The notes under the pieces were generated by a model. The model made no database searches. It had not been told where the DNA came from and saw only the letters and a program-made list of their open reading frames with translations. Positions 30,487 through 56,629 of a stretch of DNA of 64,000 nucleotides are shown one piece after another. The translations under genes and the position numbers were made by a program. Location: assembly GCF_003334305.1 (NCBI RefSeq), contig NZ_QOWS01000011.1, one strand, 5' to 3'. The DNA is from Escherichia coli (lineage in GTDB: Bacteria; Pseudomonadota; Gammaproteobacteria; Enterobacterales; Enterobacteriaceae). Every line of letters starts with the position of its first letter. Position 1 is the first letter of the stretch.

Positions 30487-30656
30487 GATAGTGCTCCACA
30501 AAGGTTATATTTGTTGCTGTGGCGTCACTATAATTTGTTATTTTATTATTTGCAAAAGGTAAAATATAAACTTCAATTATTAAAAATACGAATGGGAATA
30601 AAACGCATTACCGCTATTTATTTAATCAGCGAAGATCCCCTCGCTGATTAAAACAT

Positions 30657-31329: not shown

Positions 31330-31334
31330 CAAAA

Positions 31335-31357
31335 AACCTGCTCCGGCAGGTTTTTTT
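31335..31357 (+). terminator. rho-independent terminator of azuC/azuR transcript
   Basis: AACCTGC-TCCG-GCAGGTT followed by T7. Confidence 0.75.
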
Positions 31358-32277: not shown

Positions 32278-33072
32278 ACCTAATATCCTTATATCCAGAA
32301 GTGGAGAGGTGCAAGATAAATCAAAACACCATAATTACTGTTTGCAGAATAATTCCTTTCTGCCGGTCCGAAATGTGATCGTGGAGTCAATTCTGACGAT
32401 GATCTGAAATAAGAATAACGTCTGAACGGGTATAAGAAAATGCTTAAATCATCAAGTTTATATATTTTTACATTTCATTGATGAAATCAATGTAACTGCA
32501 ATGAATTTTAATGATAGTGCTTTTTGTATCTTGTTGATATTAATCGGTGAATTTGAATTCATGATGAAGCAATGATTTTTTAAAACGTTTTTTCATTTTT
32601 GCGATATGGCTCTCAGTATACGTGTTCTGTTAATTAATGAACACGGTGATAATTAATGGCGAAATGAATGACGCGCTTTTTCCACATCTTTGAGTTGCGG
32701 TTATTACACCATTGCAAAAACTCAACGCCAGGTAATGTGGCCTATTGACTGGTTAAAAAAAAGACATCCAGCTGGGTACCAAAGACAACAAGGATTTCCA
32801 GGCTAATCTTATGGATTAATCTGCTGTGCACTAGACAATTTGTCAGACAAATTGGCTTTTCCTTATGTCTTTTCCCGCTAAATTTATGCACGTTCTCACT
32901 GTAATTCTGCGATGTGATATTGCTCTCCTATGGAGAATTAATTTCTCGCTAAAACTATGTCAACACAGTCACTTATCTTTTAGTTAAAAGGTAATGCTTT
33001 GTTTTCCGATTAATTTAACGAATGTCATTCGTTTTTGCCCTACACAAAACGACACTAAAGCTGGAGAGAACC

Positions 33073-34062
33073 ATGCACAAATTTACTAAAGCCCTGGCAG
33101 CCATTGGTCTGGCAGCCGTTATGTCACAATCCGCTATGGCGGAGAACCTGAAGCTCGGTTTCCTGGTGAAGCAACCGGAAGAGCCGTGGTTCCAGACCGA
33201 ATGGAAGTTTGCCGATAAAGCCGGGAAGGATTTAGGGTTTGAGGTTATTAAGATTGCCGTGCCGGATGGCGAAAAAACATTGAACGCGATCGACAGCCTG
33301 GCTGCCAGTGGCGCAAAAGGTTTCGTTATTTGTACTCCGGACCCCAAACTCGGCTCTGCCATCGTCGCGAAAGCGCGTGGCTACGATATGAAAGTCATTG
33401 CCGTGGATGACCAGTTTGTTAACGCCAAAGGTAAGCCAATGGATACCGTTCCGCTGGTGATGATGGCGGCGACTAAAATTGGCGAACGTCAGGGTCAGGA
33501 ACTGTATAAAGAGATGCAGAAACGTGGCTGGGATGTCAAAGAAAGCGCGGTGATGGCGATTACCGCCAACGAACTGGATACGGCACGTCGCCGTACAACG
33601 GGTTCTATGGATGCGCTGAAAGCGGCCGGATTCCCGGAAAAACAAATTTATCAGGTACCTACCAAATCTAACGACATTCCGGGGGCATTTGACGCTGCCA
33701 ACTCAATGCTGGTTCAACATCCGGAAGTTAAACATTGGCTGATCGTCGGTATGAACGACAGCACCGTGCTGGGCGGCGTACGCGCGACGGAAGGTCAGGG
33801 CTTTAAAGCTGCCGATATCATCGGCATTGGCATTAACGGTGTGGATGCGGTGAGCGAACTGTCTAAAGCACAGGCAACCGGCTTCTACGGTTCCCTGCTG
33901 CCAAGCCCGGACGTACATGGCTATAAATCCAGCGAAATGCTTTACAACTGGGTAGCAAAAGACGTTGAACCGCCAAAATTTACCGAAGTTACCGACGTGG
34001 TGCTGATCACGCGTGACAACTTTAAAGAAGAACTGGAGAAAAAAGGTTTAGGCGGTAAGTAA
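33073..34062 (+). CDS. araF: L-arabinose ABC transporter periplasmic binding protein AraF (329 aa)
   Basis: ATG at 33073 gives MHKFTKALAAIGLAAVMSQSAMA signal peptide followed by ENLKLGFLVKQPEEPWFQ... Confidence 0.9.
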   Translation: MHKFTKALAAIGLAAVMSQSAMAENLKLGFLVKQPEEPWFQTEWKFADKAGKDLGFEVIKIAVPDGEKTLNAIDSLAASGAKGFVICTPDPKLGSAIVAKARGYDMKVIAVDDQFVNAKGKPMDTVPLVMMAATKIGERQGQELYKEMQKRGWDVKESAVMAITANELDTARRRTTGSMDALKAAGFPEKQIYQVPTKSNDIPGAFDAANSMLVQHPEVKHWLIVGMNDSTVLGGVRATEGQGFKAADIIGIGINGVDAVSELSKAQATGFYGSLLPSPDVHGYKSSEMLYNWVAKDVEPPKFTEVTDVVLITRDNFKEELEKKGLGGK

Positions 34063-34077
34063 TTTGCCGGAAAAATT

Positions 34078-34100
34078 CCCCTCTGCATGATGCAGAGGGG
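34078..34100 (+). other. perfect 11 bp-stem palindrome in the araF-araG intercistronic region (mRNA stem-loop)
   Basis: CCCCTCTGCAT-G-ATGCAGAGGGG; no downstream T-run, so more likely a stability or processing element than a terminator. Confidence 0.5.
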
Positions 34101-34131
34101 GTGTGAACGACCAGTGATTCACGGAGACGTT

Positions 34132-35646
34132 ATGCAACAGTCTACCCCGTATCTCTCATTTCGCGGCATCGGTAAAACGTTTCCCGGCGTTAAGGCGCTG
34201 ACGGATATTAGTTTTGACTGCTATGCCGGTCAGGTTCATGCGTTGATGGGTGAAAATGGCGCAGGAAAATCAACTCTCTTAAAAATCCTCAGCGGCAACT
34301 ATGCGCCAACCACGGGTTCTGTAGTGATTAATGGGCAGGAAATGTCCTTTTCCGACACGACCGCAGCACTTAACGCGGGTGTGGCGATTATTTACCAGGA
34401 ACTGCATCTCGTGCCGGAAATGACCGTCGCGGAAAACATCTATCTCGGCCAGCTGCCGCATAAAGGCGGCATTGTGAATCGCTCATTGCTGAATTATGAG
34501 GCGGGTTTACAACTTAAACATCTTGGTATGGATATTGACCCGGACACGCCGCTGAAATATCTCTCCATTGGTCAGTGGCAGATGGTTGAAATCGCCAAGG
34601 CGCTGGCGCGTAACGCTAAAATTATCGCCTTTGATGAGCCAACCAGCTCCCTTTCTGCCCGCGAAATCGACAATCTTTTCCGCGTTATTCGTGAACTGCG
34701 AAAAGAGGGGCGGGTGATCTTATACGTTTCTCACCGTATGGAAGAAATATTTGCCCTCAGCGATGCCATCACTGTCTTTAAAGATGGACGTTATGTCAAA
34801 ACCTTTACCGATATGCAGCAGGTTGACCACGACGCGCTGGTGCAGGCGATGGTCGGGCGCGACATTGGCGATATCTACGGCTGGCAACCTCGTAGTTATG
34901 GCGAGGAGCGCCTGCGTCTTGATGCTGTGAAAGCACCAGGCGTGCGTACGCCAATAAGTCTGGCGGTTCGCAGTGGTGAAATTGTTGGGCTGTTTGGTCT
35001 GGTAGGGGCGGGGCGTAGCGAATTAATGAAAGGCTTGTTTGGCGGGACGCAAATCACCGCCGGTCAGGTTTATATCGACCAACAGCCGATCGATATTCGT
35101 AAACCGAGCCACGCCATTGCCGCAGGCATGATGCTCTGCCCGGAAGATCGCAAAGCGGAAGGCATTATTCCCGTGCACTCCGTTCGCGACAATATCAACA
35201 TCAGTGCCAGACGTAAACATGTGCTCGGCGGTTGTGTAATCAACAACGGTTGGGAAGAAAACAATGCCGATCACCACATTCGTTCGCTCAACATCAAAAC
35301 GCCGGGCGCTGAGCAACTGATCATGAATCTCTCAGGCGGAAATCAGCAAAAAGCCATTCTGGGCCGCTGGTTATCGGAAGAGATGAAGGTCATTTTGCTG
35401 GATGAACCTACGCGCGGCATTGATGTTGGTGCTAAGCATGAAATTTACAACGTGATTTATGCGCTGGCGGCGCAGGGTGTGGCGGTGCTGTTTGCCTCCA
35501 GCGACTTACCTGAAGTCCTCGGCGTTGCCGACCGGATTGTGGTGATGCGGGAAGGTGAAATCGCCGGTGAATTGTTACACGAGCAGGCAGATGAGCGTCA
35601 GGCACTGAGCCTTGCGATGCCTAAAGTCAGCCAGGCAGTTGCCTGA
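34132..35646 (+). CDS. araG: L-arabinose ABC transporter ATP-binding protein AraG (504 aa, duplicated ABC domains)
   Basis: Two Walker A motifs (GENGAGKST; GLVGAGRS) and ABC signatures. Confidence 0.9.
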
Positions 35647-35660
35647 GTAAGGAGAGTATG

Positions 35661-39013
<3,353 letters not shown>

Positions 39014-56573: not shown

Positions 56574-56609
56574 AATAAAAAAGCCTGATCAGGTAACCCT
56601 GATCAGGCT
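56574..56609 (-). terminator. rho-independent terminator after argS
   Basis: 12 bp stem AGCCTGATCAGG / CCTGATCAGGCT followed on the minus strand by a U-run. Confidence 0.7.
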
Positions 56610-56629
56610 TTACTCTCACGAAAAATCGA

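Follow-up and report, generated by a model that had tools for sequence, protein, structure and literature searches.

REP elements are a classic stabiliser of mRNA. In the malEFG operon, the REP stabiliser located between malE and malF is thought to block 3' exonucleases, and the message of the binding protein outlives that of the membrane components (PMC5927463). Energetically stable hairpins of terminator size without a uridine tail were described as the signature of protective structures (PMC5927463), and the same signature was found, in a PNPase- and RNase II-dependent manner, at the trimmed ends of Rho-dependent transcripts (PMC6061677). The principle of differential decay is thus textbook knowledge (malEFG) and has been mapped genome-wide, and the element reported here changes little in that respect. 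Two paralogous sugar ABC operons, mglB-mglA and rbsB-rbsK, also have an internal hairpin behind the binding-protein gene. Sense 3' ends classified as "primary" were mapped directly past these hairpins, with 147,960 and 77,439 reads for mglB and 107,544 reads for rbsB (PMC7815308), and these 3' ends correspond to MG1655 2239314 (−) and 3937278 (+), respectively, both inside their operons. This architecture of a binding-protein gene plus a hairpin recurs across the sugar ABC importers of Escherichia coli.

The araFGH operon of E. coli resembles malE-malF in that a stable palindrome without a U-tract lies directly after the promoter-proximal binding-protein gene of an ABC importer operon, and in that REP-like elements are present in the araF-araG spacer of 15/81 relatives. 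It differs from malE-malF in that the E. coli hairpin is single-copy (median of one place per genome) and contains no GCCGGATG...CATCCGGC motif, for which reasons a REP/BIME identity was rejected, and in that its stabilising role is one that we infer. With the protective structures of Dar and Sorek (2018) it shares a stable hairpin of terminator size, the lack of a uridine tail, a position 3' of the gene whose stabilisation is expected and its conservation; unlike the members of that class, it is assigned here on sequence-level criteria, and araFGH is absent from their tables because the operon was not expressed in their arabinose-free media (entries for araF and araG were sought in the supplements, and none was present in the files searched). 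Compared with mglB-mglA and rbsB-rbsK, the tail of the araF hairpin is less U-rich than those of mglB and rbsB (UUAUUGUAU and AUUUUAUGG, respectively), whose hairpins may in part be true terminators, and the binding-protein gene of rbs is not the first of its operon. A literature search, outside which the operon papers of 1987 remained, found no direct description of the araF-araG hairpin. The reports of Scripture et al. and of Horazdovsky and Hogg from that year are said to have described an araF-specific mRNA in abundance and a full-length one that was rarer, and reportedly also noted a dyad symmetry between araF and araG. This kind of element is textbook and, in view of those two papers, the araF-araG instance was probably already known.

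In this study, the window is the whole stretch of E. coli DNA that was analysed, 64,000 nucleotides in length. Its positions 33000-36700 correspond to araF, araG and araH with a 100% match in several complete E. coli genomes, so that the gene identities proposed in a previous sequence-only reading were correct. The araF-araG-araH region was found in 5418 of 5426 genomes. According to the ORF list, the 100% match and the transfer of the K-12 annotation, araF (33073..34062, + strand) encodes the periplasmic L-arabinose-binding protein of 329 aa and ends at a TAA stop codon (34060-34062, + strand). On the same three bases, araG (34132..35646, + strand), with its ATG at 34132, encodes the ATPase of 504 aa, and araH (35661..36647, + strand) encodes the permease. 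Behind araH, the terminator scan revealed a terminator-like hairpin (36685..36712, + strand) whose tail is T-rich and which is likely the end of the operon. A single transcript, started at the araF promoter, covers the three genes. The araF-araG intercistronic spacer has 69 nt (34063..34131, + strand) and is unchanged in K-12 MG1655, and 4773 out of 5417 complete E. coli genomes have it in identical form. The RefSeq annotation has zero features inside this spacer, and no Rfam 15 hit overlapped 34063-34131 when positions 32500-37500 were scanned with an E-value limit of 10.

The spacer contains, at 34078..34100 (+ strand), the sequence CCCCTCTGCAT-G-ATGCAGAGGGG, in which two perfect 11-nt arms (34078-34088 and 34090-34100) surround a single central G (34089). 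The perfect 23-nt palindrome described between araF and araG by the sequence-only reading is therefore present as stated. Its stem had been given as 11 bp, which holds for the perfect arms of the DNA; since a hairpin loop needs a minimum of 3 nt, the RNA form of this 11-1-11 palindrome has a 10-bp stem with a 3-nt loop, and its predicted folding energy is −18.2 kcal/mol. The predicted fold of the spacer is dominated by this hairpin whichever strand is considered. The stem starts 16 nt past the araF stop and the hairpin ends 31 nt ahead of the araG start, so it is indeed located 3' of araF, and the earlier wording that placed it immediately after the stop was only slightly loose. The palindrome is beyond chance: when arms of 11 nt or longer and loops of up to 8 nt are considered, the window contains five perfect palindromes, compared with an average of 0.19 over 100 shuffles that preserved the dinucleotides, and only 0.06% of the 30-nt segments across the 64 kb have a fold as stable as this hairpin.

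Regarding the other perfect palindromes, that at 31331-31356 (AAAAAACCTGC-TCCG-GCAGGTTTTTT) is flanked by A and T runs on both sides; coordinate transfer places it at the 3' end of the azuR/azuC (IsrB) small RNA gene, of which it is presumably the terminator, and it looks bidirectional. Three more, with arms of 12-14 nt, are located at 9407-9433, 30621-30652 and 56580-56611. A rough K-12 transfer puts them in the yedF-yedK interval, behind yecR, and close to the convergent ends of yecT and flhE, and they probably serve as terminators or protective hairpins.

On the + strand, the stem is followed by the tail GTGTGAAC (GUGUGAAC as read in RNA), in which T occupies two of 8 positions, and on this strand the hairpin site was not called by the terminator scan. 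For both reasons a sense-strand intrinsic terminator was rejected. The absence of a U-tract, as noted by the sequence-only reading, holds for the + strand; a U-tract does follow the minus-strand copy of the hairpin. The Shine-Dalgarno sequence of araG, GGAG (34123..34126, + strand), is located 22 nt beyond the hairpin and outside it, and is invariant in a 44-sequence alignment designated A1. The ATGATG at the hairpin apex (34087-34092), which opens an in-frame ORF of 519 aa (34087..35646), was considered as a possible araG start and rejected: the apex is not conserved in other Escherichia, and the GGAG and ATG at 34123-34134 are invariant. In view of these alignments, the apex ATGATG is almost certainly not a start codon. 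Additionally, RNAfold predicted two small stems near the Shine-Dalgarno sequence. In the first one, the araG Shine-Dalgarno GGAGAC is paired with GUCU(A)CC at codons 4-5 (34123-34146), and the second, GTGAA/TTCAC, has 5 bp and separates the main hairpin from the Shine-Dalgarno sequence (34103-34122). If formed as predicted, either of them could damp the translation of araG.

The conservation of the hairpin was analysed in a scan of one genome per species, which provided 80 loci encoding AraF with 92-99% identity and, together with the window, 81 spacers. The sampled genera included Escherichia, Citrobacter, Enterobacter, Klebsiella, Leclercia, Buttiauxella and Pantoea, among others. The araF-araG spacer had a median length of 70 nt, and a stable hairpin was present in all 81 Enterobacterales spacers, with a median core free energy of −18.2 kcal/mol and a median start 14 nt past the stop codon. 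The folding energy of the spacers relative to shuffles had a median z-score of −2.44, and 99% of the spacers were below −1. The stem sequences differed by genus, being CCCCTCTGC/GCAGAGGGG in Escherichia, GCCCCTCAC/GTGAGGGGC in Enterobacter, GCCCCCCG/CGGGGGGC in Leclercia and GCCTCTCGC/GCGAGAGGC in Klebsiella, and the spacers of Mangrovibacter, Franconibacter, Atlantibacter and others had unrelated GC-rich hairpins. Within the 8 nt that follow the hairpin, a U-rich tail of five or more T was found in only one of the 81 spacers, and four or more T in four of them.

In 15 of the 81 spacers, the CCCCTC-type hairpin is replaced by REP/BIME-like palindromes (GCCGGATG...CATCCGGC or GGTGGATG...), and some of these spacers have two of them in inverted orientation. 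They correspond to Citrobacter (loci L008, L013, L014, L016, L018, L046, L048 and L053) and to Buttiauxella, Cedecea and others (loci L038, L052, L055, L056, L061, L066 and L077). As judged from these spacers, the presence of REP looks like the functional replacement of one stabiliser by another.

Alignment A1, with 44 sequences of the homologous group, was used to test a helix of nine pairs. The cells of this helix were paired in 96.7% of cases, compared with 45-62% when the 3' partner columns were slid by 1-3 positions, and compensatory changes that altered both sides were found in seven of the nine pairs. The observed covariation score was not reached in any of 500 column shuffles, and RNAalifold independently gave the same nine-pair helix. 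Thus, what is conserved on the mRNA strand is structure rather than sequence, and the apex of the hairpin varies freely across the alignment. An RNA helix accepts G·U pairs and rejects A·C, and each G·U becomes an A·C when the opposite strand is read. The helix cells included 22 G·U, distributed over seven pair positions and twenty sequences, against a single A·C. Because of this asymmetry, the comparative evidence shows that the helix is kept by selection in the sense transcript, that is, in the araFGH mRNA, and not in an antisense RNA or in duplex DNA. It must be noted that the strand argument is drawn from other genera; since the palindrome of E. coli is perfect, its sequence cannot tell which strand matters.

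These data bear on the reading as a DNA-level site, namely the operator of a dimeric regulator, a cruciform or a site of recombination instead of an RNA structure, which is extremely improbable: a perfect 23-bp palindrome has the classic shape of an operator, but the stem sequence varies among genera with pairing kept (unrelated hairpins or REP being found instead in some of them), acceptance of G·U and not of A·C would be meaningless for double-stranded DNA, the apex varies freely and the position is intercistronic, far from the promoter.

Taking together the stable stem-loop in the spacer directly 3' of the cistron needed in excess, the missing uridine tract after the stem and the conservation of the structure, we consider it probable, by analogy with malE-malF, that the hairpin acts as a barrier to 3' exonucleases that lets the araF mRNA outlast the araGH mRNA. 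Most polymerases would read through the hairpin into araG, since it has no U-tract. Endonucleolytic cleavage of the araGH segment would then open it to PNPase or RNase II, which would degrade it, as proposed for systems of this type. These enzymes would stall at the hairpin and leave a longer-lived mRNA carrying only araF, in line with malEFG and with the class of Dar and Sorek (2018). Translation of araF should leave the stem unmelted because, at 16 nt from the stop codon, it would be beyond the reach of the terminating ribosome. As a result, the periplasmic binding protein would be made in excess over the ATPase and the permease.

Published expression data were considered in relation to the exonuclease barrier. 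In RNA-seq with and without L-arabinose under four conditions, the log2 changes were 9.7, 4.5, 2.6 and 0.9 for araF, 6.7, 4.0, 0.9 and 0.2 for araG, and 5.1, 3.2, 0.2 and 0.5 for araH (PMC12299780). The induction of araF was therefore higher than that of araG in the four conditions, and that of araG was higher than that of araH in three of them. In O157:H7 microarrays, araF was up 10.5- and 6.0-fold, and araG was either not significant or up 2.2-fold (PMC8489885). Both data sets are compatible with a step down after araF, bearing in mind that the values are fold-changes and not abundances, and that unequal basal levels or ordinary 5'-to-3' polarity could give the same induction gradient.

The proposal of the sequence-only reading, in which the hairpin was a stability element favouring the binding-protein message, is thus strengthened by the hairpins in 81/81 spacers, the compensatory changes, the 22:1 ratio of G·U to A·C, the U-tract in only 1/81 and the REP in 15/81. 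The 3' ends of mglBAC and rbs at equivalent hairpins and the induction gradient point in the same direction; the mechanism itself is what we infer from them.

The best surviving alternative, which we nevertheless regard as unlikely, is a leaky attenuator on the sense strand, at which some polymerases would stop or pause, alone or with NusA, NusG or Rho, so that fewer araGH transcripts would be made instead of more being lost to decay. The stem is GC-rich and terminator-sized, and even in the absence of a U-tract such a hairpin could make RNA polymerase pause or cause some weak termination; in the mglB hairpin, whose tail UUAUUGUAU is partly U-rich, the 3' end is very strong. The araF > araG > araH gradient is compatible with the attenuator and with the barrier alike, and U-rich tails do exist in a few orthologues (Atlantibacter L032 and L039, and Siccibacter L037). 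Against this explanation, the tail GUGUGAAC of E. coli has only 2 U in 8 nt and was not called on the + strand by the terminator scan, and 80 of the 81 orthologues lack a U-tract, as in the signature reported for protective structures (PMC5927463; PMC6061677).

With respect to the exceptional orthologues, T-rich tails (GCCTTTTTGG, GCCTGTTTGG and GCGCCGCTTTGCTTTC) were observed behind a few hairpins, those of L032 and L039 (Atlantibacter), L047 and L037 (Siccibacter), and these may be genuine partial terminators. If they do terminate partially, this would suggest that protector and terminator states interconvert.

The minus strand has a feature that was absent from the sequence-only reading. 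There, the palindrome is followed by AAUUUUUC (AAUUUUUCC in RNA), which derives from the A-rich tract GAAAAATT located directly 5' of the stem (34070..34077, + strand). The terminator scan called CCCCTCTGCATCATGCAGAGGGG followed by AATTTTTCCG on this strand, with a GC-rich 10-bp stem and 5 U in the next 8 nt. In the Term-seq data of Adams et al. (2021), a 3' end antisense to araF is given at MG1655 1985131 on the + strand, with 1565 reads in LB at OD 0.4, 1137 in LB at OD 2.0 and 1414 in M63 glucose, and its listed sequence is ...CCCCTCTGCATCATGCAGAGGGGAATTTTT[C] (PMC7815308, Supplementary file 1). When transferred through the MG1655 match, this end corresponds to position 34070 of the window (− strand), 8 nt past the minus-strand stem and within the U-tract, where an intrinsic terminator would be expected to produce it. 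The read counts are modest, near the lowest among the + strand rows listed. In these tables, obtained in LB and glucose with araFGH off, only the antisense end is listed at the hairpin and a sense araF end is not, which is uninformative for a silent operon. The minus-strand copy thus resembles an intrinsic terminator in its GC-rich 10-bp stem, its 5 U in 8 nt and an in vivo 3' end within the interval of 7-9 nt past the stem; it departs from one in that the U-tract is missing on the operon (+) strand and in that Rho termination was also detected further on. 3'-end formation on the antisense strand is the only activity directly mapped at the hairpin in E. coli.

The Rho-termination region mentioned, which was defined with bicyclomycin, is antisense within araF at position 33747 (− strand; MG1655 1985454 +) with a Rho score of 5.25 (PMC7815308, Supplementary file 2). 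Followed in antisense orientation, it comes 323 nt past the hairpin, so some antisense RNA must exist beyond the latter. A further antisense 3' end was mapped by Term-seq inside araG, at position 35036 (− strand; MG1655 1984165 +), in one condition. Antisense transcription, then, crosses the araFGH operon under non-inducing conditions, and the end at 34070 is the product of intrinsic termination or, alternatively, of trimming that starts at the Rho-dependent stop about 320 nt on. A consensus scan for antisense promoters on the minus strand gave only two candidates, at 35192..35164 and 34233..34205, both weak matches and fewer than expected by chance in the region. The second one (34205..34233, − strand), CTGACC-17-TAATAT with 8/12 matches, would produce an antisense RNA of about 128 nt, and is speculative.

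On these grounds it could be argued that the antisense job is the primary one, the hairpin being either an intrinsic terminator that keeps antisense transcripts born in araG out of araF or the end of a cis-antisense RNA that covers the araG ribosome-binding site and controls araG, with the sense hairpin as a by-product. The sole RNA end mapped at the hairpin is antisense and was found in three conditions, 8 nt past the stem in AAUUUUUC, there is a minus-strand terminator call, and conservation of the A-tract extends over Escherichia species and one Citrobacter clade. We find it distinctly improbable, however, as a tract of at least 5 A in 8 nt is present in only 7/81 loci, all of them from Escherichia or that Citrobacter clade, compared with the hairpin in 81/81, and the 22 G·U favour the sense strand against one that would suit the antisense strand. 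Moreover, the 1137-1565 reads are close to the smallest counts among the + strand rows listed, the Rho region shows that antisense RNA continues beyond the hairpin and hence the end may represent trimming, and the promoter candidates are weak consensus matches only.

A related view, to which we give very little credence, is that of a two-faced element in Escherichia, which would protect araF on the mRNA and also terminate a cis-antisense RNA controlling araG. An antisense RNA of about 128 nt, originating inside araG at the candidate promoter 34233-34205, would cover the start codon and the ribosome-binding site of this gene, and its pairing with the araFGH mRNA would block araG translation or trigger an RNase III cut just past the hairpin. 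Such a cut would let exonucleases trim the message to the hairpin, and in this way would set the AraF:AraGH ratio.

A perfect palindrome in an operon spacer is active on both strands, and maps of 3' ends obtained under non-inducing conditions can show only the "wrong" one. In all 81 spacers the hairpin is kept, be it by compensatory change, by replacement with an unrelated hairpin or by REP insertion, and the structure itself is hence the selected trait. If the exonuclease barrier holds, it explains how far more arabinose-binding protein than membrane transporter is obtained from one promoter, and araFGH joins the ABC importers that are tuned by differential mRNA decay.
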